DNA of 60,571 nucleotides, the filler included, from Candidatus Hydrogenedentota bacterium (GTDB taxonomy: Bacteria > JBFMHD01): assembly GCA_040752395.1 (NCBI GenBank). It is 6 parts of 6 records of this genome, joined end to end, with 100 filler letters (N's around TTAATTAATTAA, not from the genome) between each part and the next. Parts side by side here need not be neighbours in the genome. Positions count along the whole stretch, not along the records: positions 1 to 10,261 come from JBFMHD010000093.1; positions 10,362 to 20,577 come from JBFMHD010000094.1; positions 20,678 to 30,834 come from JBFMHD010000095.1; positions 30,935 to 40,801 come from JBFMHD010000096.1; positions 40,902 to 50,716 come from JBFMHD010000098.1; positions 50,817 to 60,571 come from JBFMHD010000099.1. One strand, written 5' to 3'. Below, one piece after another: positions 5,681 through 60,571 of this stretch (positions are counted from its first letter, which is position 1; every line of letters starts with the position of its first letter). The notes under the pieces are model-generated. The model worked only from the letters and a program-made list of their open reading frames with translations, made no database searches and was not told the origin of the DNA. Made by a program: the position numbers and the translations under genes.

Positions 5681-5950
5681 TCCTCCTCTGAAAAAGTAAG
5701 AAGTAAGAAGTGAGAAGTATCAGGACAGGCTACAGGCTTCGGACTACAGCCGGCTGGAACCCGAAGCCCGGAGCCTGAAGCCAACATATCATCTTTAGTT
5801 TTTCATCCTTTGTGTAGAACGCAATAACCCAATAACCCAAGAACCCAATAGTGTAGAGCGCAAACCGCGCTCATGAGTACTCCTTCGAAAAAGTTCGGAG
5901 TTCGGAGCTCGTATTTATTATTACGAACTCCTAACTCCTATCTTTTTCAT
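5681..5950 (-). repeat. Mosaic intergenic repeat, modules A-B-C-D, ending in SD of the GNAT gene
   Basis: Segments near-identical to 51806-52083, 42020-42256 and 54361-54540. Confidence 0.95.
5803..5874 (-). CDS. Putative module-B mini-ORF MSAVCALHYWVLGLLGYCVLHKG (23 aa)
   Basis: GAAGGAG-N5-ATG; open to a TGA overlapping the next ATG. Confidence 0.35.
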   Translation of the reverse strand: MSAVCALHYWVLGLLGYCVLHKG

Positions 5951-6221
5951 GGGATTCCGGTATCTCCAATCAACAATTTTTTTCTTTACATTAAATTTTT
6001 TTGAGAATAATTCAATTCCTGGTAGACCCATTTTTTTTCTACCACTTTTTACTTCAATTGCGATTATTGATTTATGCTTGCAAATTACAAAATCAACCTC
6101 GCGATTGTTACCAGCCCAGTAAAATAACTCTATACTGTCTGGGTCCTGTAAGTACTTGTATAAAACGTCTCTTCTCTCGTAATCTTTTAAAAATTATGTC
6201 TACAGCATTTCTTTTGAACAT
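5948..6221 (-). pseudogene. AAA_14/DUF4143 ATPase remnant with large internal deletion
   Basis: MFKRN...FIQVLTGPRQ (start of Walker A) joined out of frame to IELFYW...EVDFV...IAIEVKSG (C-terminal PD-(D/E)XK part). Confidence 0.75.
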
Positions 6222-6338
6222 TTAGCCACCAAAACCGTCTGGTATTTTACTCATCATCCTGAGTAATTTTACTCAAAATTATTAACAATGTCAATAGTCT
6301 TGTTTCTGAATAAAGCAAGTGGAGATAACTGGAAAGAG

Positions 6339-8063
6339 TTACATAGGGTGGATGGTTTTGATGCCAAGTAAAGAAAGACCGCGGGTCATTATTTTTAATG
6401 TCATATCGCAGAGTAATAAGCGAAATTGACGAGGTGATGAATCGGCTTTAAGAACCGGGTTTTCTATATAAAATTTGTGAAAGGTATTAGCGAGATTAAA
6501 GAGATATTCGCAGAGTAGATGAGGGTAATATTTATTTGTAACGTTTCTTACATTTTCAGGATAAAAGAGTAGAGACTTAAGTAAATTAATATCCATCTGA
6601 TTGAGGTTATCAGGTAATTTGTCTATATAAAGATTATTTTCATTTATGTTACCTTTTTCAAATATGCTTTTAATACGTGCGCAGGTATATTGCAAATAGG
6701 GTGCGGTATTACCGTCAAATGACAGCATTTTATCCCATTCGAATACCACCATAGTTTCACGGTTCTGTGATAAATCATTATATTTCACAGCGCCGGTACC
6801 GATGATTTCTGCTACCTTTTGTTTATGTGATTCATCCATCTCGCCCCGTTTATCTGATATAAGTCTATAAGCACGCTCCTTTGCTTCGGAAAGAAGGCTT
6901 GATAATTCAATTACTCTACCTTCTCGTGTAGAAAGATGGCCATCAGCAAGCCGCATAAGTCCAAAAGAGATATGCTCAAGTTCGCAAGCTATATTCATAT
7001 AATTTTTTGCAGTATAGAATAACTGCTGGAAATGAAGTGATTGGCGATCGTCTGTGACATATAAAATACGATCAGGCTTGAATATTTCTATACGATATTT
7101 TATTGTAGCGATATCAGTGGTTGCATACAAAAAGCCGCCATCCTGTTTTCTTATTATAACTGGCGATAGTTTTGTTTGTTCCGGGAAAAAGAGGCAGCAG
7201 GCGCCATCATCAATTTTTGCGATACCTTTGTTGATAAACTCAGAAACGATACCAGGGAGCATAGCTTGATAGAAACTTTCACCGAGGCTATAATCGAACC
7301 CGATATCGAGTAATTTGTATATCTTTGACCACTCTTTACTACTTATATCAACGAGTTTCTGCCATATTTCTATATTCTCCTTATCGTTATTCTGGAGTTT
7401 TACAAGTTCTTGTTTAGCTTTTTCAGTCAGGTCCGGGTCGTTTTTTTCTTTTTTCTCGAAATCAACATAGATTTCAAGGAGCTTCTGCATCGGTTCTTGC
7501 TCTAAGGAATCTATATTTGCGAAATGTTTCAGGGAATAAATAAGTTTACCAAACTGCGTACCCCAATCACCTATGTGATTATCGGCAATAACAGTGTGAC
7601 CGAGTTCTTTGAGTATCCGTCTTATGGAGTCGCCGATTATGGTTGAGCGGATATGACCTATGTGCATAGGTTTGGCAACATTAGGTGACGAAAAGTCAAT
7701 GACTATGGTTTCAAGTTTCTCTGGCTGTGGGATACCAAGAGATGGAGAGGCATAATTCTCAATAAGTAATTTATAACAGTAGTATGGATTTAATTTAAAA
7801 TTAATAAAACCAGGACCAGCTATCTCAGATCTAAAATCATTTTGGCCTAAATTTTTCTGGATGAGTAGTGCTATTTCTTTAGAAGACTTTTTATAGATTT
7901 TAGCAAGAGCCATCGCACCATTAAATTGATAATCACCATAGTCTTGTTTTTGGTTAGGGACAACTTTTAGATAAGGATATAATTGTGGGTCGATATTTTC
8001 TGATATCGACTTTTTGAAAGAGGAGACAATCTGTTCAGAAATAGCTTTATCTAAAAATGGCAT
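6339..8063 (-). CDS. argS: Arginine--tRNA ligase
   Basis: DFSSPNVAKPMHIGHIRST (HIGH), NHIGDWGTQFG, GNTAPYLQY. Confidence 0.98.
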   Translation of the reverse strand: MPFLDKAISEQIVSSFKKSISENIDPQLYPYLKVVPNQKQDYGDYQFNGAMALAKIYKKSSKEIALLIQKNLGQNDFRSEIAGPGFINFKLNPYYCYKLLIENYASPSLGIPQPEKLETIVIDFSSPNVAKPMHIGHIRSTIIGDSIRRILKELGHTVIADNHIGDWGTQFGKLIYSLKHFANIDSLEQEPMQKLLEIYVDFEKKEKNDPDLTEKAKQELVKLQNNDKENIEIWQKLVDISSKEWSKIYKLLDIGFDYSLGESFYQAMLPGIVSEFINKGIAKIDDGACCLFFPEQTKLSPVIIRKQDGGFLYATTDIATIKYRIEIFKPDRILYVTDDRQSLHFQQLFYTAKNYMNIACELEHISFGLMRLADGHLSTREGRVIELSSLLSEAKERAYRLISDKRGEMDESHKQKVAEIIGTGAVKYNDLSQNRETMVVFEWDKMLSFDGNTAPYLQYTCARIKSIFEKGNINENNLYIDKLPDNLNQMDINLLKSLLFYPENVRNVTNKYYPHLLCEYLFNLANTFHKFYIENPVLKADSSPRQFRLLLCDMTLKIMTRGLSLLGIKTIHPM

Positions 8064-8227
8064 AAGTTATACACCGCTACCATGACGCCACACAAATAGC
8101 CTGGTGGCGTTGGTATCGGCTATTTTTCTATGAGATACGGAATTTGTAAATAATTTTTTTTGACAGAAATCTGATATTGAGGTAAAAAAAAGAAGTGTAT
8201 GGCTTTGTGGTTTTAAAAAAGGTAGTT

Positions 8228-9250
8228 ATGATATGGCTAATCTTTTTTATAATTGTTTTCATACTTTTGTGTGCTTTCCAGATAATTCTTAGAATAGTGG
8301 TCAAGAAACTTAGCGAGGTATCTAAAAAGACCAGGACAGACGTAGATGACCTTATAGTTGAGTTACTCGGTAAGACTAAGTTTGTATCTTTACTTTTTGT
8401 TTCTTTATATATAGCTTCATTTATTTTAAATTTATCGGATAGGGTGCGGAGACTTACAAACGGCGTTATTATAATAGTTTTATTATTGCAGGTCGCGTTT
8501 TATGTAAATGCTATAATCAATTACTGGATAACAAAATACAAAACGAAAAAAAGAGATGAAGGTGCTATGGACGGCACGACCATCACAGCGATTGGATACA
8601 TAAGCAGAATGATATTATGGGTTGTGATACTGCTTCTTGTACTTGAGAACGCCGGGATTGATATAACTGCTCTTGTTGCAGGACTTGGTATAGGCGGCAT
8701 AGCGGTAGCATTAGCAGTTCAGAATATTCTCGGTGATATTTTTTCGTCATTATCTATCATACTTGATAAACCCTTTGTTATCGGTGATTTCATCGTGGTT
8801 GGTGATTATTTGGGAACAGTTGAACATATAGGATTGAAAACCACTCGTATTCGCAGTCTCTCAGGTGAGCAGCTTGTGTTTTCAAACACTGATCTTTTAA
8901 ACAGCCGGATACGCAATTACAAACGGATGGCGGAGCGCCGCGTGGTATTTAAGTTTGGAGTTATCTACCAGACCCCACTTGAAAAACTTAAAAAGATACC
9001 ATCTATACTAAAGGGGATAATCACAGCGATTAACGATACAAGATTTGACCGCACTCATTTCGTTTCGTTTGGAGATTCATCACTTGATTTCGAGGTGGTG
9101 TATTACGTTTTAAAGCCAGATTACAACGTTTATATGGATATCCAGCAGGCAATAAATCTTGCATTATATAAAGAGTTTAAAGAAGAGGGTATAGAGTTTG
9201 CCTATCCTACACAAACGATTTATATAGAGAAAACAGATTTACCCTGTTAG
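8228..9250 (+). CDS. mscS: Small-conductance mechanosensitive channel
   Basis: GLGIGGIAVALAVQ...DKPFVIGD...GTVEHIGLKTTRIR; start uncertain (8195 or 8228). Confidence 0.92.
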   Translation: MIWLIFFIIVFILLCAFQIILRIVVKKLSEVSKKTRTDVDDLIVELLGKTKFVSLLFVSLYIASFILNLSDRVRRLTNGVIIIVLLLQVAFYVNAIINYWITKYKTKKRDEGAMDGTTITAIGYISRMILWVVILLLVLENAGIDITALVAGLGIGGIAVALAVQNILGDIFSSLSIILDKPFVIGDFIVVGDYLGTVEHIGLKTTRIRSLSGEQLVFSNTDLLNSRIRNYKRMAERRVVFKFGVIYQTPLEKLKKIPSILKGIITAINDTRFDRTHFVSFGDSSLDFEVVYYVLKPDYNVYMDIQQAINLALYKEFKEEGIEFAYPTQTIYIEKTDLPC

Positions 9251-9277
9251 AGAAAATTACTTTGTCAGTACCTAATT

Positions 9278-10222
9278 ATGAATAAGAGACATACTTTATT
9301 TTGGCTTGCAATCTGTGTAATCCTTTTATATTTAACCTTCAGGGATTCTAATTTTGATAATATATATAATTTTTTAATCAAAACGAAGTTTGTTTATCTT
9401 TTATTTGTTATACTTGCTGATTTTTGTGCTATAACTATACGGAGTTTGAAGTGGCAATTTTTATTATTTAACATAAAAGTATCAAAAACACGATTTGGGA
9501 CTGATATTAAATTTTCAAGAATATTTAGATTAATAGTAATAGGTTTGATGGTCAATACATTTCTGCCTTTTCGGATGGCTGAAATAATCCGATCGTATAT
9601 ACTTGGCGAAAAAGAGAATATAAGTAAAGCACTTGTTTTTGGGTCAACTGTGATTGAGGGTTTGTGGGATATAGTTTTTCTTTTTGGAGTTATTGGCGTA
9701 TCATCATTTTTCTTAGATTTGCCGCAATGGTTATGCTATGGAGGTTACATAGCGTTATTTATATCTGTTATTTTTGTTCTGGTAATTTTATTTTTAAATA
9801 AGATACCAGTATTAAAAAAATTTTCTATTGTAAGGTCGTTTATTGAGGGAACTGAGTCTTTTCATAATCTCCGGGGGATATTTTTGCCGCTTGTTTATTG
9901 TTTTTTAGAGTGGTTATTTGGGTTAATTTATATTAAATTCACTTTAATGTCATTGAAGATAGACATTTCTTTAGCAGGGATAATACTTATCTTGATTGCG
10001 ATTTATTTAAGTTTCAGTCTTACTTTTGTTCCTGGTGCTCTTGGGGTTTTCGAATTTATAAATAAAAACATACTTGTCGGACTTTTAGGTGTTGATGTAG
10101 ATCAAGCCTTAAGTTTTATAATATTATTAAGGGTTATGCTTACGATACCAATAACAATTCTGGGGCTGGTATTTTTATTTATTGAATGGGTATCGTTTAG
10201 AGAAGTAAGGAGAGGGGGATGA
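9278..10222 (+). CDS. Lysylphosphatidylglycerol synthase TM / flippase-like membrane protein (UPF0104)
   Basis: RSLKW, NTFLPFRMAE, PGALGVFE motifs; multiple TM helices. Confidence 0.85.
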   Translation: MNKRHTLFWLAICVILLYLTFRDSNFDNIYNFLIKTKFVYLLFVILADFCAITIRSLKWQFLLFNIKVSKTRFGTDIKFSRIFRLIVIGLMVNTFLPFRMAEIIRSYILGEKENISKALVFGSTVIEGLWDIVFLFGVIGVSSFFLDLPQWLCYGGYIALFISVIFVLVILFLNKIPVLKKFSIVRSFIEGTESFHNLRGIFLPLVYCFLEWLFGLIYIKFTLMSLKIDISLAGIILILIAIYLSFSLTFVPGALGVFEFINKNILVGLLGVDVDQALSFIILLRVMLTIPITILGLVFLFIEWVSFREVRRGG

Positions 10223-10261
10223 GAAAAAAGTAATATGATTTTATAAATTTTACTTGAAATA

Positions 10262-10361
10262 NNNNNNNNNNNNNNNNNNNNNNNNNNNNNNNNNNNNNNN
10301 NNNNNTTAATTAATTAANNNNNNNNNNNNNNNNNNNNNNNNNNNNNNNNNNNNNNNNNNNN
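10262..10361. other. Artificial contig linker
   Basis: N44-TTAATTAATTAA-N44. Confidence 0.99.
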
Positions 10362-10725
10362 GGCACAAAGTATGAAAAGAGTCACAAGTCGCAAGTCGTG
10401 AGTCAAAACAGGACTCGAGACTCAAGACTCAAGACTCAAGACTTTTCAGCAGGCTTTGGGCTTTTGGCTCCAGCCGGCTGTAGTCCGTAGCCTGTAGCCA
10501 GAATTATTAGAGTTACAGCGTTTTTCAGAGGATAGGAGATAGGAGTTAGAAGTTAGGAGTTCGTAATAATAGCTCCGAGTTCCGAACTTTTTTCGAAGTT
10601 TATGAGGTCAAGTAGTGAGGGTCAAAAGACCCGTAGTAGGCAAATAAATTTGCAATTTGCAATTTACAATGGAGCGAAGCGACAAGAAGCAAGATAATGG
10701 AAGAAGTGAGAAGTATCAGAAAAAA
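10362..10725 (+). repeat. Mosaic intergenic repeat, modules S-C-T-A-J plus inverted F/D, upstream of the atp operon
   Basis: Near-identical blocks at 12651-12820, 20504-20577, 17587-17660, 23429-23452. Confidence 0.95.
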
Positions 10726-10782
10726 GATGCAATATAATGAATGGACCAAGAAATAGATGAGTGAAGACGGGGGAAATACAAA

Positions 10783-11022
10783 ATGGTAAATAGTAATAAT
10801 AAAACAGAGAAAAAAGATGATGACTGGAAGATAGCTGTGCTTCAGGCGTCATCTGTTGGGTTTGTAATGGTTTTCTCTGTTTTAATAGGGCTGGCTATAG
10901 GATTGTGGCTTGATAAGTTGTTAAGAACAACACCCTGGCTTATGATTATTGGTATATTTATAGGTATGTTCTCTGGTTTTTACAGTATATGGTTGATAAT
11001 GAAAGAGATAGCGAAACATTGA
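10783..11022 (+). CDS. atpZ: AtpZ/AtpI-family ATP synthase accessory protein (gene 1)
   Basis: SSVGF...IGLAIGLWLDK...TTPWLMIIG; first gene of the atp operon. Confidence 0.85.
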   Translation: MVNSNNKTEKKDDDWKIAVLQASSVGFVMVFSVLIGLAIGLWLDKLLRTTPWLMIIGIFIGMFSGFYSIWLIMKEIAKH

Positions 11023-11402: not shown

Positions 11403-11419
11403 ATAAATAAAATTAATGC

Positions 11420-12585: not shown

Positions 12586-12821
12586 GAGGAGTTGTCATGA
12601 GCGTTTTTGCGTTTTTGCGCTCTACACAAAGTATGAAAAACTAAAGATGATATGAAAAGAGTCGTGAGTCGTGAGTTGCAAGTCGTGAGTCAAAACAGGA
12701 CTAAAGACTCAAGACTCAAGACTTTTCAGCAGGCTTTGGGCTTTTGGCTCCAGCCGGCTGTAGTCCGTAGCCCGTAGCCTGTACCCCGAATTATTAGAGT
12801 TACAGCGTTTTTCAGAGGAGG
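12586..12821 (+). repeat. Mosaic intergenic repeat, modules B(short)-S-C-T, ending in SD of atpE
   Basis: Shared blocks with 10362-10532 and 36911-37014. Confidence 0.95.
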
Positions 12822-17498: not shown

Positions 17499-19118
<1,620 letters not shown>

Positions 19119-20577: not shown

Positions 20578-20677
20578 NNNNNNNNNNNNNNNNNNNNNNN
20601 NNNNNNNNNNNNNNNNNNNNNTTAATTAATTAANNNNNNNNNNNNNNNNNNNNNNNNNNNNNNNNNNNNNNNNNNNN
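20578..20677. other. Artificial contig linker
   Basis: N-run containing TTAATTAATTAA. Confidence 0.99.
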
Positions 20678-30834: not shown

Positions 30835-30934
30835 NNNNNNNNNNNNNNNNNNNNNNNNNNNNNNNNNNNNNNNNNNNNTTAATTAATTAANNNNNNNNNN
30901 NNNNNNNNNNNNNNNNNNNNNNNNNNNNNNNNNN
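30835..30934. other. Artificial contig linker
   Basis: N-run containing TTAATTAATTAA. Confidence 0.99.
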
Positions 30935-31130
30935 CTACACTATTGTGTTCTTGGGTTATTGGGTTATTGGGTTATTGGGTTATTGGGTTATTGGGTTATT
31001 GCGTTTTTGCGTTATCTTGCTTCTTGCCTCTCGCTTCTTTCGTTATCTTTCTTTTTTGTTATCTTGCTTCTTGCCTCTCGCTTCTTGTTTCTACTTGATA
31101 TCATTAGAGTTACGGCGTTTTTCGGAGGAG
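30935..31130 (+). repeat. Mosaic intergenic repeat, modules B-F-T, ending in SD of sat
   Basis: (GGGTTATT)6 array, TTCTTGC array, ATTAGAGTTACGGCGTTTTTCGGAGGAG. Confidence 0.95.
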
Positions 31131-32281: not shown

Positions 32282-32383
32282 GGAGTCAAAGAGTCGAGAG
32301 TCAGGAGTCAGACTTCTTGCTTCTTGCCTCTTGCCTCTTGCTTCTACTTGATATTATTAGAGTTACAATGTTTTTCAGAGGAG
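32282..32383 (+). repeat. Mosaic intergenic repeat (GAGTC array-F-T)
   Basis: Near-identical to 44345-44430. Confidence 0.93.
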
Positions 32384-36219: not shown

Positions 36220-36879
36220 ATGAAGAAAAGATATGATATAGACAAAATCTTAAAAGGGATTGAAGAACTAAAAGAGAGCCAGAAGAAAACAGATGAGCAG
36301 TTAAAGAAAACAGATGAGCAGTTAAAGAAAACGGATGAGCAGTTAAATAGGACAGATGCAGAAATAGATAGAGTTATTAAGGAGGCAGAAGAGCGGTCAA
36401 AGAGGATAGACGCAGAGATAGAGAAAGTTAACAAGATGGTAGGTAATTTAACAGATGGCTGGGGTAAATTCGTAGAAGGGCTTGTTGAACCCGCTGTCTG
36501 GGTGCTATTTAAGAGATTAGGTTATAAGATAACAAGGACATTGCAGAGAGTGAGTTCAAATGTGAATGGTAGGAATTTAGAGATAGATATTCTTGCGATA
36601 GGTAAAAACAAAGAAGGCGAAGATATAATTTTAGTGACAGAGGTAAAAAGCAATTTAACAATAGAGGAAGTAAAAAAAATCGAGGGGGTGCTAAGAGAGT
36701 TCATAGAATTTTTTCCAGAATATAGAGGTAAAAAGGTGATAGGTGTTGCAAGTGGGATAAGATTTGAGAAAGGTGCGGGGGGATATGCAGAGGGCCGGGG
36801 ATTATATGTATTGGCGCCATCAGGTGAGAATATGAAGATATTGAATAGTTCTGATTTTAAGCCAAGGATATGGGGCTAA
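36220..36879 (+). CDS. Coiled-coil + PD-(D/E)XK nuclease-like protein (DUF3782-like)
   Basis: KKTDEQL repeats; WGKFVE; EIDIL...EVKS. Confidence 0.8.
   Translation: MKKRYDIDKILKGIEELKESQKKTDEQLKKTDEQLKKTDEQLNRTDAEIDRVIKEAEERSKRIDAEIEKVNKMVGNLTDGWGKFVEGLVEPAVWVLFKRLGYKITRTLQRVSSNVNGRNLEIDILAIGKNKEGEDIILVTEVKSNLTIEEVKKIEGVLREFIEFFPEYRGKKVIGVASGIRFEKGAGGYAEGRGLYVLAPSGENMKILNSSDFKPRIWG
36283..36345 (+). repeat. In-frame 21-bp tandem repeat x3
   Basis: AAGAAAACRGATGAGCAGTTA x3. Confidence 0.95.
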
Positions 36880-36910: not shown

Positions 36911-37014
36911 GGATGTTGGCTTCAGTCTCCGGGCTTTTGGCTCCAGCCGGCTGTAGTCCGTAGCCTGTAGCCTGTACCCCGAATTATTAGAGTTACAGCG
37001 TTTTTCGAAGGAGG
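36911..37014 (+). repeat. Mosaic intergenic repeat, modules C-T, ending in SD of fba
   Basis: Matches 12735-12820. Confidence 0.95.
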
Positions 37015-39290: not shown

Positions 39291-40679
39291 ATGTTTGATC
39301 TAATTATTAATAATGGCAAGGTTGTTACAGCTAAAGACTCATTTAAAGCAGATGTAGGGATTAAGAATGGGAAGATACTTGCAATAGGTGAGCGGCTTAA
39401 AGGTAATAGTAGAACCGAGATAATCGATGCCAAGGGTAAACTTGTAATGCCTGGTGCTATTGATGTCCATGTCCATCTACAACTGCCTTTTTGTGGAACC
39501 GTTAGTGCAGATGATTTTGAGAACGGAACCAAAGCAGCTGCGTGCGGCGGAGTAACCACTGTAATTGATTATGCTATCCAGACAAAAGGCTCAACAATTA
39601 CTGAAGCTATTAAAGCAAGAAAGAAAGAAGCTGAGACTAAAGTTTGTGTGGACTATTCGCTACATGGCGGTATAACTGACTGGAATGATAGAACACAGAA
39701 AGAGGTTGGCGAGATAATTAAGAAAGAGGGTATCCCGAGTTTTAAGATGTTTATGATTTATAAAACCCAGGGCTGGATGGCTGATGACGGCGCTTTATAT
39801 CAGGCGCTTGAAACCACAGCACCGCTTGGCGGTATGATTATGGTGCATGCTGAAAGCGTGTTTGTGCTTGATATGCTTGTGGCACGGTATCATGAAATAA
39901 AGAATAAGGTCAGCGCTTATGGACATGTTTTATCAAGACCGAATTTTACAGAATACGAAGCAGTACAACGGGCTGTTTTATGGGCAGAGGTAACAGGTGG
40001 TAAACTTTATGTTGTTCATATCTCAACAGGTGAAGCTTGTGATATACTAAAAAGGAGTCAGGAGAAAGGTGCACGAGTCTATGGCGAGACCTGCCCGCAA
40101 TACCTTTTACTTGATGACTCGGTATTTAAGGGTAAGGATGGCCATCTTTATGCAACCTGCCCACAGATAAAAAAGAAAAAAGATTCGCTAAGATTATGGA
40201 AAGCTTTATATGATGGTGAGTTAGCCATCGTATCCACAGATACCTGCACATTTGATAAAAAACAGAAAGCGATGTGGAAGGGTGATTTTACTAAAATACC
40301 GTTCGGGATGCCAGGCGTAGAAACAATGTTGCCACTTACTTTTCATTTCGGAAAAAAGAAAGGGTTTAGTATTAATAAAATAGTTGAGATATGTTGTACT
40401 AACCCTGCAAAACTTCATGGATTGTATCCTGAAAAAGGAACACTTGCTATTGGTAGCGATGCTGATATCGTTGTTTATGACCCAAATATTAAAGTAAAAA
40501 TTGATTACCATAAACTTCAAACAAACTGTGATTGGAGCCCGTATCAGGGATGGCAGATTCAAGGCTGGCCCACCGTGACCTTATCGCGCGGTAAAATAGT
40601 TGCCATGAATGCTAAGTTCGTTGGTGAGAAAGGCTGGGGTAGATTCGTTAAAAGAAAACCATTTGGTGAAATAAGATAA
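39291..40679 (+). CDS. hydA: Dihydropyrimidinase / hydantoinase
   Basis: PGAIDVHVH, SFKMFM, HAE, ETCPQYL, DFTKIPFGMPGVE. Confidence 0.92.
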   Translation: MFDLIINNGKVVTAKDSFKADVGIKNGKILAIGERLKGNSRTEIIDAKGKLVMPGAIDVHVHLQLPFCGTVSADDFENGTKAAACGGVTTVIDYAIQTKGSTITEAIKARKKEAETKVCVDYSLHGGITDWNDRTQKEVGEIIKKEGIPSFKMFMIYKTQGWMADDGALYQALETTAPLGGMIMVHAESVFVLDMLVARYHEIKNKVSAYGHVLSRPNFTEYEAVQRAVLWAEVTGGKLYVVHISTGEACDILKRSQEKGARVYGETCPQYLLLDDSVFKGKDGHLYATCPQIKKKKDSLRLWKALYDGELAIVSTDTCTFDKKQKAMWKGDFTKIPFGMPGVETMLPLTFHFGKKKGFSINKIVEICCTNPAKLHGLYPEKGTLAIGSDADIVVYDPNIKVKIDYHKLQTNCDWSPYQGWQIQGWPTVTLSRGKIVAMNAKFVGEKGWGRFVKRKPFGEIR

Positions 40680-40690
40680 GATTTCTTCGA

Positions 40691-40801
40691 AAGATTGAAA
40701 GATTGAAAGATACGGCAAGGAAGTGTATATTTTCGCTTTCTTTACTTTTAACTTTTGACTTTTTACTTTTAACTTGTCATAGGAGTTAGAAGTTAGGAGT
40801 T
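40691..40801 (+). repeat. Mosaic intergenic repeat, modules G-A (contig end)
   Basis: Near-identical to 17499-17608. Confidence 0.95.
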
Positions 40802-40901
40802 NNNNNNNNNNNNNNNNNNNNNNNNNNNNNNNNNNNNNNNNNNNNTTAATTAATTAANNNNNNNNNNNNNNNNNNNNNNNNNNNNNNNNNNNNNNNNNNN
40901 N
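40802..40901. other. Artificial contig linker
   Basis: N-run containing TTAATTAATTAA. Confidence 0.99.
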
Positions 40902-42019: not shown

Positions 42020-42256
42020 AGAGGCAAGATATTCGGTTCACTGATAACCGAACTTAAGAAGCTTCACGTTTTTCAGAGGAGTCAACATGAGCGCGGGTTG
42101 CGCTCTACACTATTGTGTTATTGGGTTCTTGTGTTATTGGGTTCTTGGGTTATTGGGTTATTGCGTTCTACACAAAGGATGAAAAATATAGGAGTTAGGA
42201 GTTTGTAATAATAGCTACGAACTCCGAACTCCGAACTTCAAAGTTTTTCGGAGGGG
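42020..42256 (+). repeat. Mosaic intergenic repeat, modules B-A, ending in SD of fliE
   Basis: Shared blocks with 5803-5950 and 51880-52074. Confidence 0.95.
42087..42182 (+). CDS. Putative module-B mini-ORF MSAGCALHYCVIGFLCYWVLGLLGYCVLHKG (31 aa)
   Basis: AGAGGAG-N5-ATG; 96-nt open frame. Confidence 0.35.
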   Translation: MSAGCALHYCVIGFLCYWVLGLLGYCVLHKG

Positions 42257-44344: not shown

Positions 44345-44430
44345 ATTAGAAGTTAGGAGTCAGGAGTCAGACTTCTTGCTTCTTGCTTCTACTTGCTATT
44401 ATTAGAGTCACAATGTTTTTCAGGGGGGGA
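44345..44430 (+). repeat. Mosaic intergenic repeat (GAGTC array-F-T), ending in SD of fliG
   Basis: Matches 32299-32383. Confidence 0.92.
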
Positions 44431-44437
44431 TATTAAA

Positions 44438-50164: not shown

Positions 50165-50346
50165 AAAGATAGGAGACAGAAGACAGAAGACAGGAGGAGA
50201 AGACACAAAGGATATTAGGGGATGGGTCATAGGGGATGGGGTATATTAGGGGCGGCGCTTAGGGGTTAGGGGTCCGGAGTCGAGAGTCGTGAGTCAGGAT
50301 AAGACTGACGACTTAATGACCGGAGACTAGAGACTTTTCAGAGGAG
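50165..50346 (+). repeat. Mosaic intergenic repeat (module M, TAGGGG tract, S-like hairpin) ending in SD
   Basis: AGACAGA array; 5x TAGGGG; GAGTC/GACT arms; TTTTCAGAGGAG. Confidence 0.88.
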
Positions 50347-50716: not shown

Positions 50717-50816
50717 NNNNNNNNNNNNNNNNNNNNNNNNNNNNNNNNNNNNNNNNNNNNTTAATTAATTAANNNNNNNNNNNNNNNNNNNNNNNNNNNN
50801 NNNNNNNNNNNNNNNN
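50717..50816. other. Artificial contig linker
   Basis: N-run containing TTAATTAATTAA. Confidence 0.99.
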
Positions 50817-51805: not shown

Positions 51806-52083
51806 CTCCTCTGAAAAACGTTGTAACTCTAATAATATCAAATAGAAGCAAGAAGCAAGATAAACAAACATCTGGTTTTTCATGCTTTGTGTAGAGCGCA
51901 AAAACGCAAGAACGCAATAACCCAAGAACCCCAAAAACCCAAAAACCCAATAGTGTAGAGCGCAACCCGCGCTCATGTTGACTCCTTCGAAAAAGTTCGG
52001 AGTTCGGAGTTCGGAGCTCGTATCTATTATTACGAACTCCTAACTTCTAACTCCTAACTCCTATCTTTTTCATCCTTTGTGTA
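51806..52083 (-). repeat. Mosaic intergenic repeat, modules A-B-F-T, with no downstream gene
   Basis: Full set of shared blocks; SD points into the 3' end of a convergent ORF. Confidence 0.95.
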
Positions 52084-53625: not shown

Positions 53626-54354
53626 TCAAAGAAAAAACTTAAATGTTTCGGGTTTGAGTTTAAGTATAATTCTATATTCCTCAATAGCATTTAATATATC
53701 TATAGATAGTTCTTCAATAAATTTCAGTTCAAGGATGTCTTTCAGATTTACACAAAGTGGCATACCTGTGAATATTTTCTTTTTATCATCAGAGAGCTCT
53801 GTTTGTAAATAAAGATATAAACCAACCATACTTCCAAGTCCTGTAGCGATACTAATAAAATCAGTTTCTGGATACAAACTTTTTGCAATATATCTTGCAA
53901 TGGTTTTAAATGAAGAATTGTTAACAAGTTCTATTATTTCTTCAAGTAGCACGAATTTTCGTTTATGCGCAGCTAAATCAATCATCAATCCTCTGCCACG
54001 TAACATACTATCAACATTATCTGTAACAAATGAAAGGTAGTCACCAGCTTCTTTATAAGCAAGTGTCAACAAACCATCAGCAATAAGAAGATGTATAGCT
54101 TTATCATCTTTATCCATTTCTCTACGCAGGACTAATTTTATAAGATAAAATGAAAGATTCACGAGCTCAATGCTAAATAAAAACCTTTTGTCTTTTTCTT
54201 CAACTTCTTTATCCCAGCCTTTAAACATATGTAAACCGAATTCATATCGTAAAGGTCTATAACTTCTATCCGTAATAATTTTTATTTTTCTTTTAGTATT
54301 TGCGAAAGGGGATAATTGTAATTCCTTTTCCAATAATTCATAAAATGTTTTCAT
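53626..54354 (-). CDS. Hypothetical protein, possibly a degenerate polyprenyl-synthase fold
   Basis: RPL...IELV...LLIADGLLTLAY resemble isoprenyl synthase helices, but no DDxxD. Confidence 0.5.
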   Translation of the reverse strand: MKTFYELLEKELQLSPFANTKRKIKIITDRSYRPLRYEFGLHMFKGWDKEVEEKDKRFLFSIELVNLSFYLIKLVLRREMDKDDKAIHLLIADGLLTLAYKEAGDYLSFVTDNVDSMLRGRGLMIDLAAHKRKFVLLEEIIELVNNSSFKTIARYIAKSLYPETDFISIATGLGSMVGLYLYLQTELSDDKKKIFTGMPLCVNLKDILELKFIEELSIDILNAIEEYRIILKLKPETFKFFL

Positions 54355-54360
54355 AGACTC

Positions 54361-54540
54361 TCCTCCTCTCCTCTGAAAAAGTAAGAAGTAAGAAGTGGGA
54401 AGTATCAGGACAGGCTACAGGCTACGGACTACAGCCGGCTGGAGCCCGAAGCCCGGAGCCAACATATCATTTACTTCTTGCATCTTTCGTTATCTTTCTT
54501 TCCGTTATCTTGCTTCTTTCGTTATCTTGCCTCTACCTAT
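54361..54540 (-). repeat. Mosaic intergenic repeat, modules F(inv)-C-D, ending in SD
   Basis: Matches 5683-5790 and 57605-57790. Confidence 0.95.
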
Positions 54541-54546: not shown

Positions 54547-56544
54547 TTATGGCACGAAATAAACTGCTCTATCCTGTATAAGCTGTGCCTTGGGGTCAGG
54601 TGGCTCATTGCGGAAAAGATTCAAAATGACTTTTACTTCAAACATAGTTTTATAAGGCACTTTTCTATAAGGTGTTCTGTAAACCACTAAATATTCTTCC
54701 TGAAAATTATAATCTTTTAATCTTCTAAACTCATTTTTAAAATACGGTGAATTAATATCAAAAAAATTTCCACCTGTCCACTGAGATATATATCTGGCAT
54801 TACTTAAAATTTTATCACTTACAATGCTTATAGGTAGATGCAGTCCTTTTGCAAGGTATATAATTTTTCTGCAAGAATCTTCTTTTAAATCTTCAGCTGT
54901 TATAAGTATTACATTTCTTAAGTTCTTATCAAGATAAGCATTCCATAAAGCTTTATCCAGAGCTGATTCAAGATTTTTATAATAGATGCTACCCATATCA
55001 GTTATGGTTTTGTTCTTCTTACTATCAATAATAAAATAATACTTATTTTTAATACCTATAAAATCTAACTCCTTTTCTAAAACTTCTACTAATTTTTTTT
55101 CATTCTCTTTGAGTTTAGAAATCACTATGTGTACTGACGAAGTTTTATCACTTCTTATTTTTGAGACATCGATTGGATAAACTCTGTTATTATTTTCATA
55201 TACTGCAAAATTATTTTTATTAAGGTTTGGATAATGAAATCCTCTGTCATCAGTAACAGTAAAGTAAATGCCGAGTAGATGTTCTTTTTCATAATGAGAA
55301 ACATCTATTTTCTTTATATCAAGAAAAATCCTTTCGTCTTTAATAAGAGAGGGTCGATAAATTCTTATTCTGCTTTTTTCAAGGTCAGATAAATAGAGAT
55401 AATCTTTATTATCAATCTCAATATCAGAAATAGATACAATCGTATCAGAATTAATATTATCAAGAATTAAAGTTTCGTTTAAAAGATTCCCATTTTTCAT
55501 TTTAAATACATTACCGTTTTTTGTTACAATAAAAAATAAATCATCTTTAATTGAAGAGAATCCCTGGGGTTCAAAAAATTGAGGATTTTTAAATTCCTGC
55601 AGTATCAATCCATTTATATCGAACTTCTCTATCCTGTTATTATTCTTATCAATCACATAAAGAAATCCGTCCCTATCGAATAATAAATCACAAGGATTAA
55701 TAAAGAGACCAGGTTCTATACCATAACCACCAATCATACTTATGCAGTTGTAGCTTTTATCAAAAATAGAGATACGATGATTCCCGCTTTCTGTTATATA
55801 AATATTTTCAAATACATCCTTTGTAATAAATGATGGTCCTGATAATTCACCTTTTAACTTTCCAAGCCCACCTATCTCTTTAATTGTTTTTCCATTATAA
55901 TTTATAATCCTTACCTTATTAATATTAAATAAACCAACGGTTATTTTATCTTTTTCAAAGAAAAACCCTTTGGGTTTACTCCCTCTTTTAAATTTAAACT
56001 CTTTTATTCTCTCACCGTTCTGATTTAATATTACTATTTCATCAGTAGCATATGATGAGAGATATAAATAATTATCTGAGGGGTTATAATAAAGTGCGAC
56101 TGGTAACGAAAAAAATCCTGTGCCTATATCTTTTCCGTAAATCTCTTTTATTAAAGTATATTTATCAGTAGAAAAAATATCATCAGTTGTACCAATCTTT
56201 ATGTTTTCCCAGTTTTTCGAGCGTTTAATCTTCCATCCAACAGGATAAGTATCACCATAACCTTTGTCCTGTATCTTCTGCCAGCATTCATTAGCCTTTT
56301 TTGGATCGCCCATTAAAAGGTTAAGTTTTCCGAAATAATAAAGAGTTTCAATATTATCAGGATAAAAATTTAACGACTCGTTGAAATAATTTTTAGCAGA
56401 ATTATAGTCACCAAGATAAAACGAAATTATTCCTTCATAGAGTCTCTTACCCGACTGAAGTAATTCATAGTATCCTGGTTCTTTAGCCCGGGTATTTGTC
56501 ACTAATACTATTAAGAGTAAAATACTGCTAAAATAATTCTTCAT
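54547..56544 (-). CDS. Secreted TPR + NHL-repeat protein with vWA-like C-terminus
   Basis: Signal peptide; TPR helices; GELSGP..I..D...NIYITESGNHRISIFD NHL repeats. Confidence 0.85.
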   Translation of the reverse strand: MKNYFSSILLLIVLVTNTRAKEPGYYELLQSGKRLYEGIISFYLGDYNSAKNYFNESLNFYPDNIETLYYFGKLNLLMGDPKKANECWQKIQDKGYGDTYPVGWKIKRSKNWENIKIGTTDDIFSTDKYTLIKEIYGKDIGTGFFSLPVALYYNPSDNYLYLSSYATDEIVILNQNGERIKEFKFKRGSKPKGFFFEKDKITVGLFNINKVRIINYNGKTIKEIGGLGKLKGELSGPSFITKDVFENIYITESGNHRISIFDKSYNCISMIGGYGIEPGLFINPCDLLFDRDGFLYVIDKNNNRIEKFDINGLILQEFKNPQFFEPQGFSSIKDDLFFIVTKNGNVFKMKNGNLLNETLILDNINSDTIVSISDIEIDNKDYLYLSDLEKSRIRIYRPSLIKDERIFLDIKKIDVSHYEKEHLLGIYFTVTDDRGFHYPNLNKNNFAVYENNNRVYPIDVSKIRSDKTSSVHIVISKLKENEKKLVEVLEKELDFIGIKNKYYFIIDSKKNKTITDMGSIYYKNLESALDKALWNAYLDKNLRNVILITAEDLKEDSCRKIIYLAKGLHLPISIVSDKILSNARYISQWTGGNFFDINSPYFKNEFRRLKDYNFQEEYLVVYRTPYRKVPYKTMFEVKVILNLFRNEPPDPKAQLIQDRAVYFVP

Positions 56545-56550
56545 TTGTAT

Positions 56551-56595
56551 CCCATCAGTTATCTGTCTTCTGTCTTCTGTCTCCTGTTTTCTATC
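56551..56595 (-). repeat. Short leader repeat (module M + ATAACTGATGGG)
   Basis: GGAGACAGAAGACAGAAGACAG as at 50172; tail as at 4809. Confidence 0.8.
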
Positions 56596-57564
56596 CTAAT
56601 ACATCCGTGTTAAAGGATATATTTTTGTGTTATCATAAATAACAACATCTTTTAAAACAGAACATGCACCAATCCTGCAATTCTTTCCTATAATCGAGCG
56701 TCCCCTGATAATAACTCCAGTTTCAATGTATGTATCCATACCTATGGACGTCTCATCTGAGATATAGCAGGTATCTGGATTTTCAAATGATACGCCTTCT
56801 AACATAAGAATTTTTATTTTTCTCTGGTTCCTTAATTTTTCAACATAAGCCAATTCTTCTCTTTGATTTATCCCGCAAATCTCAGCACTATCATCCGTGG
56901 TATAGGCTGTAACCATCCTTTTCTTTTTATTAAGATAATAAATAACATCAGTAAGATAATATTCTTTCTGGTCGTTTTTATTTTTAAGCAGGTTTAAAAC
57001 ATTTAAAACAGGCTCTTTTTTAAAAATATATACCCCAGAGTTAACCTCTTTTATTTTAAGTTCGTTTTTATTAGCATCTCTATGTTCAACTATTTTTAAA
57101 ACTCTATTATTTTTATCTTTGACGATTCTGCCATATCCAGCTGGATTTTCAAAAATAGCTGTTAAAATTATAGCATCTTGCTCTGTTTTCTCATATATTT
57201 CAAGTAGTTTTTTTATAGTAGCAAGACTAATTAAAGGCATATCACCGCAAAAAACAAAAATATCATCGCTTTTAACTTGCCCACTGTTTCTCGCAGCCAT
57301 AAATGCATCGCCTGTTCCAAGCTGGTTTTTCTGAATAGCAAAATGAATCCTTACAGAATCAGAAGGAAAATACCGTTTGATGGTTTCAGAAATTAATTTA
57401 TAGTCTGGTGGTACCACAATAATTATATTATTAATTTGATTTACTTTGCAGATAGTTTTTAAAAGATAACAAATCATAGGGGTATCATCAATAGGATGAA
57501 GTACTTTTGGCAATTTGGTTTTCATTCTTTTGCCAATGCCGGCTGCAAGTATCACTGCATCCAT
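56596..57564 (-). CDS. glmU: GlmU-like UDP-GlcNAc pyrophosphorylase, short C-terminus
   Basis: LAAG.GKRMK..LPKVLH, QLGTGDA, GYGRIV, EVNSG, EYYLTD. Confidence 0.85.
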   Translation of the reverse strand: MDAVILAAGIGKRMKTKLPKVLHPIDDTPMICYLLKTICKVNQINNIIIVVPPDYKLISETIKRYFPSDSVRIHFAIQKNQLGTGDAFMAARNSGQVKSDDIFVFCGDMPLISLATIKKLLEIYEKTEQDAIILTAIFENPAGYGRIVKDKNNRVLKIVEHRDANKNELKIKEVNSGVYIFKKEPVLNVLNLLKNKNDQKEYYLTDVIYYLNKKKRMVTAYTTDDSAEICGINQREELAYVEKLRNQRKIKILMLEGVSFENPDTCYISDETSIGMDTYIETGVIIRGRSIIGKNCRIGACSVLKDVVIYDNTKIYPLTRMY

Positions 57565-57571
57565 TGTATAT

Positions 57572-57800
57572 CTCCTCTGAAAAACGTTGTAACTCTAATA
57601 ATTCGGGCTACAGGCTACGGACTACAGCTGGCTGGAGCTCGGGGCCCGGAGCCTGAAGTCAACATATCATCTACTTCTTGCATCTTTTCCGTTATCTTGC
57701 TTCTTGCTTCTTTCGTTGTCTTTCTTTTCCGTTTCTCAACCTCAACCTCAACCTTAACCTTTTCTTTCTTTCCGTTATCTTGCCTCTATATATCATCTCC
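57572..57800 (-). repeat. Mosaic intergenic repeat, modules F(inv)-C-T, ending in SD of glmU
   Basis: Shared blocks plus a GGTTGA array. Confidence 0.95.
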
Positions 57801-57807
57801 TATGAAA

Positions 57808-58938
57808 TTATTCTACCTCTAAATCCGGGTTAATCTGCATAAGAATCTTTCCTTCTTTAAGATAAAATCCACATTGTTTTACAGAACTTGTCACAAGATG
57901 AGAGATACCAGCAATCTCAATTTTCACCCCCGGGTAAATTTCATTAAATACCACAACATTACAATACCCTTTGGCTTTGCGTTTTCTAATCTTTAAATCA
58001 AGTTCTTTTCTTTTATTTTCAGCATCCTCCATTTTCTTTTTCAGTTCAAAATAAAGTTTACTCTGTAAAGCGAGTTGTTCTTTTTTGTCCTGAGGGAGTG
58101 TCCTTATCTTTTCACCCATTGTTTTGATAACCATAATAAGTTTTTCAAGTCGTTTAAGTTTTGGTAAGTCTTCTCTTACAATACTCTCAAGTTCTAAGAA
58201 GTCGCTCACCCATTTTTTCATCTTGTCATTTTTAATAATGATTTCAACAGGTGTCATCTCTTTGTTTCCTAAAAACTTCACAGCCACTCTATCGCCCGCC
58301 TCAATTGTAGAGTCTACTATGGTACCTTTATAGAGTGTACAATCAATACTATCACTAGCCACTACTTTACTTTTTTTAATCTCACCTGTATTAACTCTAT
58401 CTTTAACTCTTATATCAGCTTCTCTGATATAAGGTGATGTAAGGGATGCTGCTTCAATCCATGTAGTTGACATACCATTTATGCCTCCCTCAATAACTAA
58501 CTCTTCGCCACATATTATAACAGCATCCTGTACATAGCCTTTAAGAACTATCTTTCCAGAAGCCTCGACTCTTGAACCTCCTTCAATATTCCCTATTATT
58601 TCAAGATTTTTATCAAACTTTACAAGAGTATCAGCTCCTTTAATAGACTTTTTTATAGAATAAGTAGTTTTATCCGGATCAATAAATGATCCATCTGGTA
58701 GCGCAACCTCTTTTACTTCAGCAATCTGTTTAGCTTTTTCTTCCTCTTTTTTATATAAATCTTCAATATCTTTAATCTCTTCATCTATCTCACCATACTC
58801 AATACCCCAATCTTTAAGTTTATTCAATTGTGATTCAGTAATAGTATCTCCTTTTGAGAATATTGGTCCGCCATCATAATATATATCTCTATTAAGAACT
58901 TTATTGGGTTTAAGTTCACTAATTTTAATAGTAGCCAT
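57808..58938 (-). CDS. FapA/DUF342-family protein
   Basis: IIGNIEGGSRVEASGKIV beta-solenoid, coiled coil, IYPGVKIEI. Confidence 0.82.
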   Translation of the reverse strand: MATIKISELKPNKVLNRDIYYDGGPIFSKGDTITESQLNKLKDWGIEYGEIDEEIKDIEDLYKKEEEKAKQIAEVKEVALPDGSFIDPDKTTYSIKKSIKGADTLVKFDKNLEIIGNIEGGSRVEASGKIVLKGYVQDAVIICGEELVIEGGINGMSTTWIEAASLTSPYIREADIRVKDRVNTGEIKKSKVVASDSIDCTLYKGTIVDSTIEAGDRVAVKFLGNKEMTPVEIIIKNDKMKKWVSDFLELESIVREDLPKLKRLEKLIMVIKTMGEKIRTLPQDKKEQLALQSKLYFELKKKMEDAENKRKELDLKIRKRKAKGYCNVVVFNEIYPGVKIEIAGISHLVTSSVKQCGFYLKEGKILMQINPDLEVE

Positions 58939-60438
58939 TTATCCCCTCAATTTTAAAAGAGATTTATAGATATCTTCAGCTTCTTCAGGATAACTAACAA
59001 AACTAATTCTTACTGGATTATTATTTATTGTTTTATCAAGTTCTACGGTTAAAAGAGTTCTTCTAATCTCTTTTTTATCTTTGCCTGGAAGAACTGCTAT
59101 AAGTTCACCTGGATATACACTTATAACGTTTTTCGTAGTGGTTAATTTATTATATATTTCTTCTCTAAACTTTCTTATTTCTTCACCTGATATAATTTCA
59201 GACTGCACAACAAATTTTATAAGAGTTAACGGGTAATCAAGTTCTTTTGCCCTGATAAACTCATCCTTAAGAACCTCAACAAGCAATCTAAATGGTTCAT
59301 TTCTGATTTTGGATTCAAACTCAAGAGTTTTCGCGGTAACGATGGCTGGTCCAAGCATCGAACCAAGAATGGTAAAAAGCTTTAAAAGAAAATCTTTATC
59401 TTCGAGTTTTTCATAATCATTTAAGATTATTAAACCTCCTATCTTATCTCCGGCAGGTAATGGTATTATTACATCGTCTCCATTAAACGAGGTACCACAT
59501 ATATTTTTATCAGATAATTGGTCAAAATATAAAGCCTCGGTTTTTAATCCTTTTTCAGATAATTCATTTTGTGATAATTTTTCAGGCAGGGTAAGGTCTT
59601 CCTTCTCAAACCCAAGTTTTTTAAGAAAATCTTCTTCGGATTTCTGATATATAGCACCTGATTTTGCTCCAAACCCTGTCTGTAGTGCTTCAAGCGATAA
59701 TTGAAATACATCATTAATATTATCACTTGAGCTGATTATTTTACCCACCTCATAGATAGCAGAGAGCTCATCATTTGCCTTTTGTAACTTTTCATGAGAT
59801 TTTTTAATCTCTAAAACCATTTCATTAAATACCTGGGCAAGTGTACCGATCTCGTCCCTGGTCCTGGGCGTGACACTCTGATTTAAATCACCCTCTCTTA
59901 CTTTAATGCTCGCAGCTGTTAGTTTTTCAAGCTGTTTTGTTAACCTTGTTGATAAAAGACTTGAAATAATAATAGAAAACAATACAAGAATAACCGCAAA
60001 TTTAACCATCTCCTTTTTTATCTCGTCCCTTTTTTGTAAAAAACTATCTCTGTTATAAAATATCTCAACGAAGCCTAATTCAACATCTGTTCCTGGTATA
60101 ATGATACGAGATGCAAATTTTTTATATTTACCAAGTACACCCCTTTTTTCAGCAAGCGTTTTGTTTTCGTCATCTTTGACAATTATTAATGCGATGTCTT
60201 TATCAGATGCAACTAATAGTTCTATAACAGTCTCTATAGTAGAAAGCTCATTCTTTAATATATTCTCAGAAAGGCTCGGCATTAAAGTATTGGTTATAAC
60301 ATTTACTTTTCGTATGATATCATCTTCTGTGATCTGATCTAATCGATAAAGAAATATATTCGTACCTATGCTTACTGTTATTATGATAAAAATAGCCACA
60401 AGAAGAGCTATTTTGCCTGCAAGAGTTAGTTTAAACAT
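58939..60438 (-). CDS. Membrane sensor with HAMP and GAF-like domains
   Basis: Two TM helices, GDLN...RDEIGTLAQVFNEM; start ATG 60438 after the repeat-borne SD. Confidence 0.85.
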   Translation of the reverse strand: MFKLTLAGKIALLVAIFIIITVSIGTNIFLYRLDQITEDDIIRKVNVITNTLMPSLSENILKNELSTIETVIELLVASDKDIALIIVKDDENKTLAEKRGVLGKYKKFASRIIIPGTDVELGFVEIFYNRDSFLQKRDEIKKEMVKFAVILVLFSIIISSLLSTRLTKQLEKLTAASIKVREGDLNQSVTPRTRDEIGTLAQVFNEMVLEIKKSHEKLQKANDELSAIYEVGKIISSSDNINDVFQLSLEALQTGFGAKSGAIYQKSEEDFLKKLGFEKEDLTLPEKLSQNELSEKGLKTEALYFDQLSDKNICGTSFNGDDVIIPLPAGDKIGGLIILNDYEKLEDKDFLLKLFTILGSMLGPAIVTAKTLEFESKIRNEPFRLLVEVLKDEFIRAKELDYPLTLIKFVVQSEIISGEEIRKFREEIYNKLTTTKNVISVYPGELIAVLPGKDKKEIRRTLLTVELDKTINNNPVRISFVSYPEEAEDIYKSLLKLRG

Positions 60439-60445
60439 TTTTGGT

Positions 60446-60571
60446 CCTCCTCTGAAAAACATTGTAACTCTAATGATATCAAGTAGAAGCAAGAAGCAAG
60501 ATAACGGAAGAAGTGAGAGGTATCAGGACGGGCTACAGGCTACAGGCTACGGACTACAGCCGGCTGGAGCC
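60446..60571 (-). repeat. Mosaic intergenic repeat, modules C-D-F-T (window end)
   Basis: Shared blocks; supplies SD of the HAMP gene. Confidence 0.95.

Follow-up and report, generated by a model that had tools for sequence, protein, structure and literature searches.

Why should genes as different as atpE, sat, fba and fliG begin behind the same short sequence? The question is raised by the window, the whole 60,571-nt stretch analysed here from the metagenome-assembled genome (MAG) of a Candidatus Hydrogenedentota bacterium, in which a module of ~31 nt that we call T (consensus ATTATTAGAGTTACANNGTTTTTCAGAGGAG) ends in GAGGAG just before start codons. The MAG comprises 349 contigs and 2,843,250 bases (34.8% G+C, completeness of 93.8%), and the window is made of six of these contigs (C343, C344, C345, C346, C348 and C349) joined by N spacers, so that it is a set of joined contigs and not a continuous chromosome, and neighbours across spacers need not adjoin. 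An initial annotation of this DNA had proposed that the repeats supply the ribosome-binding site (RBS) of unrelated housekeeping genes. Our analysis leads to a somewhat different reading, to which we give a probability of roughly 0.7: T would be the exact 3' end of an ordered leader repeat, GAGGAG would be the Shine-Dalgarno (SD) sequence of the genes behind it, and this end would have been joined at a GGAG that already existed. All module names (A, B, C, E, H, J, K, O, P, T and a3) were coined in this analysis.

A search of the whole genome with the 27-nt core of T, allowing up to 5 substitutions, returned 306 copies. Seventeen of them lie less than 80 nt from a contig end and were excluded, which left 289 testable copies. 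A long open reading frame (ORF; at least 60 codons, or at least 20 when running off the contig) starts 0 to 20 nt after T in 233 of these, with 209 starts at 4 to 12 nt, 9 at 0 to 3 nt and 15 at 13 to 20 nt; the start codons are ATG (194), GTG (20) and TTG (19). As controls, a long-ORF start on the other side of T and in the opposite direction was found for 1 of 277 copies, and 10.6% of 20,000 random positions passed the same test. The placement of T before gene starts is therefore real and highly non-random, which confirms what the nine copies of the window had suggested. The remaining 56 copies are followed by module A (7), E (3), C (1), a K-like fragment (1), an ORF of 20 to 59 codons (9) or nothing recognised (35). 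In all, 244 of 2351 genes (10.4%) have T within 20 nt of their start, a figure that is a lower bound, as 129 of the 306 copies adjoin contig ends.

Orientation is equally far from random. Between co-directional genes T points with the genes in 136 cases and against them in 5, and the other modules behave in the same way (A 68:2, a3 67:3, J 74:5, B 81:4, C 106:12, P 72:7, O 87:4 and E 30:1, with the direction of the genes given first). Module H is the only one that is found in both directions (132:76). The 12-nt motif at the tail of the repeats, TTTTYRRAGGRG, occurs 448 times in the genome, compared to 13 occurrences of the reversed pattern; in four other genomes it was found in 12 to 28 copies versus 17 to 28 for the reversed control, which is background.

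The sequence that T places before these genes is a good match to an SD. Matches of at least 5 nt precede 216 of the 244 T-fronted genes and 620 of 1816 repeat-free genes, and a native GAGGAG was found in only 47 of the latter; thus, the SD provided by T is uniform and surpasses the average in strength. In 648 repeat-free genes whose start is unambiguous, the 5-mers AGGAG, GGAGG, GAGGT and AAGGA are the most enriched ahead of the start (2.3- to 5-fold), so that the organism seems to use a canonical SD. Most spacers between T and the start are too short to hold another SD. Considering that GAGGAG is the sole SD-like sequence before the start in most copies, ribosomes would start on it, and from its sequence and position it is most probably the working SD of the T-fronted genes. 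Taken as a description, the proposal that unrelated genes have their SD within the repeat is correct.

T is the invariant module that closes a mosaic repeat of up to ~400 nt with the fixed order (E)-A-(O)-a3-J-B-C-(P-H)-T. Module A is a GC hairpin opening with SD-N5-ATGAGCGC. Arrays make up O (8-nt units) and H (CTTGCYT), and 7-nt repeats form the arms of the hairpins B, C and E. Within the chains that end in T, 935 module hits are co-oriented with it and 20 are reversed, and ~95% of modules are oriented as the genes. The commonest chains (T alone, H-T, P-H-T, C-P-H-T, B-C-P-H-T, C-T, and up to A-O-a3-J-B-C-P-H-T) correspond to the full chain shortened from the left or internally deleted. An alignment of 279 T copies, preceded by H in 185 cases, by C in 86 and by neither in 8, shows near maximal conservation up to and including GAGGAG, and one base further on only background. 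The repeat thus contains the SD and has an exact right end. Variation within T is confined to three or four positions, the two most variable of which (AT, GC, AC, or AA) are found, for example, at window positions 12804-12805. The left ends, by contrast, are ragged: where unique DNA adjoins a copy on the left, which is seen in few cases, the break falls 19 to 39 nt from the right end, and in some copies inside T. Masking the genome with 16-mers that occur at least five times (12-mers were dropped because AT-rich words reach the threshold by chance) covers 5.2% of it. Of this masked sequence 92% is non-coding, which amounts to 28.9% of all non-coding bases, and 583 of 1311 intergenic regions bear such repeats.

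An indication of how T came to stand before genes is found outside the window, where it abuts two tRNA genes, tRNA-Ser(UGA) (C28:153-267) and tRNA-Tyr(GUA) (C175:3078-3185). At both junctions the final GGAG of T is also the first four bases of the tRNA, on which ARAGORN and Rfam agree. Leaving aside one tRNA with wrapped coordinates (the 43rd), 42 were evaluated; just 4 of these start with GGAG, and T stands on two of those four. A third, tRNA-Ser(CGA) on C157, is abutted by another repeat module, while none of the remaining 38 has T or its tail next to it. The chance of both T-bearing tRNAs falling among the four GGAG-starters is 6/861 = 0.007 (hand calculation). Since a tRNA has no use for an SD, and a single GGAG is present at the junction instead of two, the right end of T appears to have been joined at a pre-existing GGAG. 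In protein genes, the base after GGAG is G in.40, A in.29, T in.29 and C in.03 of T-fronted cases (n=63; median spacing of 7), a pattern that resembles that of native GGAG SDs (G.33, A.37, T.24 and C.06, n=131; median spacing of 8), although this resemblance would be equally expected from selection for function.

Joining at a GGAG already present would mean that the gene's own SD core is kept and not replaced. The portable SD of the initial annotation thus survives in part: the SD does lie within the repeat, but cause and effect are perhaps reversed, as the tRNA fusions point to joining at an existing GGAG, and we lean towards the docking of T onto such a site over a repeat that brings its own SD. 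According to this scheme, the repeat, oriented with the gene, would lie in the transcribed leader or the inter-cistron spacer of at least one gene in ten. Its right end would be joined at an existing GGAG, either the SD core of a protein gene or the 5' end of a GGAG-starting tRNA, and the joining would always leave the SD in place. Tolerance inside the atp and flagellar operons, and the small number of copies away from gene starts, would follow from the SD staying in place. A further step, which we put forward only tentatively, is that a non-autonomous element homing to GGAG has rewritten at least a tenth of the leaders to one standard start region by a copying mechanism undescribed for bacterial repeats; undescribed, because an exact right end, ragged left ends and a single orientation occur here with neither RAYT nor reverse transcriptase detected.

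Several observations weigh against the joining of T at existing GGAG sites and its use as an SD. The tRNA evidence comes from two loci. GGAG was found at 31 of 160 left boundaries versus 6 and 10 in control windows, and so low a share argues against a general GGAG target duplication. As for the enzymes that could mobilise the repeat, PF01797 (Y1 transposase/RAYT) and PF00078 (reverse transcriptase) have no match in the 93.8%-complete MAG, and PF04986 (Y2) has a single fragment of 22 bits and 34 residues that lies in no real ORF. A GGAG, GAGG, or AGGA core precedes just 39% of the 648 repeat-free genes with an unambiguous start, and translation initiation in this organism may be less SD-dependent than assumed. 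The MAG contains no small-subunit (SSU) rRNA, and primer-like motifs gave no true 3' end of a 16S gene. The set of 2351 genes with a chosen start was built with crude ORF rules, and the start codons are those given by these rules. In the spacer 54355-54367 of the window, a second SD-like sequence, AGGAGGAG, is nearer to the ATG at 54354 than the tail of the repeat; it may be a retained native SD. Finally, the SD of H-flavour copies, with which the CU-rich array ahead of it is predicted to pair, has a predicted probability of being unpaired of 0.21, versus 0.49 in 100 control genes. With the upstream 90 nt shuffled this value is 0.18, so the predicted sequestration is an effect of CU-rich composition.

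The folding of the leaders bears on another suggestion of the initial annotation, that an upstream TGAAAAA can pair with the TTTTTCA next to the SD. TGAAAAA is present up to 300 nt upstream in 106 of 188 T copies, and in 60 sampled leaders the predicted pairing averaged 0.26, with a median of 0.02. The suggestion fares poorly in general, although in 16 of the 60 leaders the predicted value exceeds 0.5. The B and C hairpins are predicted to fold as expected in the atpE leader. The predicted fold of the composite is more stable in sense (-82.9 kcal/mol) than in antisense (-69.4 kcal/mol), but shuffled sequences show the same strand difference, so that composition accounts for it; composition also accounts for much of the greater sense-strand stability of the hairpins across the family. 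Rfam 15 gave no match at E<=0.1 across the whole window, and of the 45 T sites followed by neither a long ORF nor a recognised module, the 40 covered gave just tRNAs and two sub-threshold chance hits.

It is also conceivable that T, or the composite, is a cassette of promoter plus RBS from which one co-regulated set of genes is transcribed, in the manner of Neisseria REP2, which is a documented precedent in the cited sections of PMC3184786. T contains TACANN, a possible -10 hexamer whose final two bases are the most variable pair of positions in T (TACAAT in 116 of 271 H- and C-flavour copies), module K carries TTGAAA-N17-TATATT, and the two tRNA genes directly behind T need a promoter and not an SD. 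Moreover, the repeat begins no more than 15 nt past the upstream stop in 62 of 136 co-directional cases, which leaves no unique DNA for a separate promoter; hence, these copies must be reached by read-through from upstream or by transcription from inside the repeat. Read-through fits the positions of the composites in the atp and flagellar spacers. However, H- and C-flavour copies have no acceptable -35 hexamer 16 to 18 nt ahead of TACANN, more than half of all T copies have C or A in place of the essential last T of the -10 hexamer, and scans with consensus promoters listed none wholly within T, with totals matching those of shuffled sequences (45 vs 35.6; 68 vs 61.4). The 24 divergent spacers usually retain a unique AT-rich stretch upstream of the composite, with sites resembling TTGACA-N17-TAnnnT; the composite therefore sits in the 5' leader. 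The share of genes with a divergent upstream neighbour is similar among T-fronted (24/160) and other genes (327/1797). A promoter cassette hence seems unlikely to us, although it is the most serious of the competing explanations.

A shared leader could instead be a regulatory device, in which the 24 nt before the SD, the H array or the TGAAAAA/TTTTTCA pair set the translation of many genes together through a protein, a small RNA or a fold. These 24 nt are as conserved as the SD itself in ~280 copies, the SD of H-flavour copies is predicted to be ~79% paired, and the hairpins are somewhat stabler on the sense than on the antisense strand (C 184:88, B 135:51 and E 49:4 copies). Nevertheless, the shuffled upstream sequence pairs the SD equally well, which speaks for composition and not for a defined fold; the heptamers pair convincingly in few leaders, no Rfam family matches, the T-fronted genes of the window have no common functional theme, and recent spread would account equally well for the high conservation of T. 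We consider such a device improbable, a little more so than the promoter cassette. Slightly less probable again is random insertion without target preference, with survival only where the SD lands at a working distance. Selection alone would favour copies that sustain translation, and the ragged left ends fit the decay of an unneeded part, but neutral insertions further upstream should then persist and nearly none do (233 of 289 copies are at gene starts, and 12 of 289 are followed by another module). Besides, the tRNA junctions have one shared GGAG, not two, and the rarity of native GAGGAG (47/1816) implies that the uniformity belongs to the element. That assembly or binning created the repeats artificially is hardly credible. 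Contig ends do frequently fall within module-bearing repeats and the window itself is an artificial join, yet breaks at repeats are normal for short-read assembly, many copies are contig-internal with unique genes on either side, copies differ at several positions and in their module sets, and there are no redundant contigs.

Within the MAG, no two contigs share a stretch of 450 nt or longer at an identity of at least 90%, so there are no filled and empty versions of a site to compare. No copy of T was detected in 40 other genomes, which are kin at the domain level only, and a search of viral contigs, plasmids and phages gave no match. Among the matches listed in a scan of one genome per species there is one other record, a 2.2-kb contig (C128) of the genome G041, with a composite that is 98% identical to the family and precedes a gene of at least 475 aa without a homologue in the present MAG. 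In G041, a pattern search and the profile model R1 each gave one T copy and no further ones, and the rest of this genome is ~65% identical to the MAG at shared genes; C128 may be mis-binned or G041 may be a second host of the repeat family. The fba orthologue of G041 (57% identical) has a plain AAGGAGG as SD and no repeat, but it is too distant to date the insertion, and the best metagenomic relatives of AtpG are at most 52% identical.

Within the window (Table 1), the regular expression TTAGAGT[TC]AC[AG][AG][CT][GA]TTTTT retrieves exactly nine copies of T, at the places named by the initial annotation, and seven of the nine are directly before a gene start. The twelve genes that it listed as having a tail of the form TTTT(C/T)RRAGGRG 4 to 13 nt ahead of the start all do, although the tail of fliG, TTTTTCAGGGGGG, is one base off this motif. 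Ten of the twelve gene names are supported by Pfam. The gene at 5672 (labelled 'GNAT') and that at 54354 have no Pfam match at E<=1e-5, and the one called 'glmU' codes for a 322-aa protein with NTP_transferase and hexapeptide domains. The proposed N-termini lie no more than 13 residues from where the Pfam domains begin, in support of the start codons used here.

Table 1. Module T and related repeat features in the window, by position along the whole stretch
Feature	Position	Strand	Relation to genes and remarks
Module T copies found with the regular expression	10503-10533, 12790-12820, 31100-31130, 32353-32383, 36983-37013, 44398-44428	+	
Module T copies found with the regular expression	51806-51836, 57572-57602, 60447-60477	-	
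Composite E-A-O-a3-J-C-P, tail TTTTTCAGAGGAG at 5683-5695	5683..5950	-	10 nt before ATG 5672 ('GNAT'-labelled gene)
Module T then module E; tail GAGGAT	10503..10533	+	no gene
Modules A-a3-J-B-C filling the atpB-atpE spacer	12597..12789	+	begins 3 nt past atpB stop with GAGGAG-N5-ATGAGCG
Module T, C flavour, ends GAGGAG	12790..12820	+	6 nt before atpE ATG 12827
Modules K and E, tail TTTTTTAGAGGGG, filling the atpG-atpD spacer	17499..17661	+	tail ends 5 nt before atpD ATG 17667
O and H arrays ahead of the sat T copy	30935-31099	+	reach contig end
Module T, H flavour	31100..31130	+	5 nt before sat ATG 31136
B-like half hairpin, H array and T	32284..32383	+	fills all of the sat-phosphodiesterase spacer; 4 nt between T and ATG 32388
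C hairpin and module T	36913..37013	+	8 nt before fba ATG 37022
Partial T tail, A-O-a3, and E with tail TTTTTCGGAGGGG	42066..42256	+	7 nt before fliE ATG 42264
H array and module T, variant tail CAGGGGGG	44351..44428	+	9 nt before fliG ATG 44438
Tail CTTTTCAGAGGAG of B-like hairpin	50334..50346	+	7 nt before Trm112 ATG 50354
Module T then K-like fragment AGTGTATATTTT	51806..51836	-	no long ORF
Composite H'-C-P, tail TTTTTCAGAGGAG at 54368-54380	54368..54535	-	13 nt before ATG 54354
Module T, C flavour	57572..57602	-	7 nt before NTP-transferase ATG 57564; composite extends to ~57790
Module T, H flavour	60447..60477	-	8 nt before HAMP-domain protein ATG 60438; P, C modules extend to contig end 60571

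Composites of the window are found between cistrons of conserved operons, at atpB-atpE, atpG-atpD, flgC-fliE and fliF-fliG. The atpG-atpD spacer measures 168 nt here, while among 60 other bacteria the median is 53 nt and 4 exceed 168 nt. In two genes, a longest-ORF rule pulls the start upstream into the repeat, to GTG 17610 in atpD (17610-17666) and to TTG 44393 in fliG (44393-44437). The true starts are ATG 17667 for atpD (and not the longer GTG 17610), ATG 31136 for sat, ATG 44438 for fliG and ATG 50354 for Trm112, and automatic gene callers would probably misplace the starts of genes such as atpD and fliG.

Two modules have features of their own. Module A, with 158 copies genome-wide and one in the window at 42066-42175, opens a mini-ORF with its ATGAGCGC; the lengths of these mini-ORFs cluster at 10, 23, 31, and 32 codons, and they end in ATGAAAAA or CTAAAG, where several frames hold stop codons. 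Module K stands at 17499-17560 and 40689-40750, directly past the stops of atpG and of the gene ending at 40679, and combines a terminator-like hairpin, GAGAAAGTGTATATTTTCGCTTTCTT, with the promoter-like sequence mentioned above. Unrelated to the intergenic family are tandem 21-nt repeats, AAGAAAACAGATGAGCAGTTA, within a + strand ORF at 36283-36412. The longest repeats returned by the repeat search (D1 and I1-I10) are the joining spacers and not genomic sequence; these lie at 10262-10361, 20578-20677, 30835-30934, 40802-40901, and 50717-50816, each of the form N44 + 12 nt + N44.

The scale of the phenomenon is what sets it apart. Known RBS-bearing repeats are small families (26 copies for REP2 and 40 to 50 for the MIRUs), while here the SD of ~10% of the genes, among which are core energy, glycolysis and flagellar ones, is either supplied by one 31-nt module or shared with it. 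In the literature outside subscription journals we found no report of a gene-start repeat on such a scale. If T does join at existing GGAG sites, this would show by what route selfish DNA can invade packed operons and cause no polar damage; the family would also exemplify, in nature, translation start regions standardised across a genome, and it would offer a handle for finding a new mobilising activity. In practical terms, T repeats break short-read assemblies (129 of the 306 copies are at contig ends) and mislead gene callers.

By its structure the T family is not a MITE, a REP/BIME or a MIRU family. It has an exact right end and ragged left ends instead of the two fixed ends with terminal inverted repeats of a MITE. 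REPs are mostly found after genes and in alternating orientation; the T family shares with REP/BIME the hairpin-rich units and mosaic clusters, but it lies before genes in a single orientation and without a detected RAYT (PF01797). HUH elements (IS200/IS605 and IS91) use a specific 4-nt target beside one exact end and have no terminal inverted repeats, and the other end of IS91 is variable; the T family resembles them in these respects. The tandem arrays of 7- to 8-nt units in intergenic spacers (families D2-D7) are reminiscent of the cyanobacterial STRR heptamer repeats. However, the arrays found here are arms of hairpins in a fixed module order that ends at a gene start, and this organism has flagellar genes and kin among the compared genomes at the domain level only. 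A 2024 review of MITEs makes no mention of RBS, Shine-Dalgarno, or start codons.

The BOX elements of S. pneumoniae (boxA-boxB(n)-boxC) are also modular, are co-transcribed with their neighbours and can form small ORFs without good SD candidates, as described in the cited sections of PMC3049150. The T family is like them in its modular build with a variable number of internal units, and differs in having an SD as its defining end and a near-uniform orientation in the direction of the genes. Its closest precedents are the MIRUs and Neisseria REP2 (also known as CREN), from which it stands apart by its scale, its SD end, the order of its modules, their co-orientation and the tRNA junctions. MIRUs are repeats of 40 to 100 bp present in 40 to 50 copies, with 4-nt direct repeats and a small ORF overlapping the start of the next gene (-4 coupling); they are transcribed with the operon, and their insertion at gene starts is thought to spare downstream expression, according to the sections cited of PMC12548453 and PMC3184786. 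T likewise lies between cistrons in the direction of transcription (136:5), but its spacer of 4 to 12 nt between SD and start is not conserved, T contains an ATG in the AT subtype alone, its subtypes have no ORF in common, and of 160 left ends just 31 are flanked by GGAG.

REP2, in the sections cited of PMC3184786, is a repeat of 120 to 150 bp with 26 copies, two stem-loops and no terminal inverted repeats, which lies directly upstream of ORFs, carries a promoter, an RBS and an ATG and precedes 14 co-regulated genes; the same sections describe IR sequences of Borrelia plasmids as similar intergenic repeats that carry the RBS and the 5' untranslated region (UTR) of downstream genes. Compared by description only, the T family is like both in its internal stem-loops, the lack of terminal inverted repeats and the provision of an RBS to unrelated ORFs. 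It differs from REP2 in having at least 306 copies before ~10% of the genes, and in that its conservation stops at the SD, with the spacer and the start codon being specific to each gene, while REP2 includes the ATG. Moreover, REP2 includes a promoter and marks a single co-regulated set, whereas a promoter is not evident in T, which closes a collinear chain of modules, shortened on the left, that is found also inside operons.

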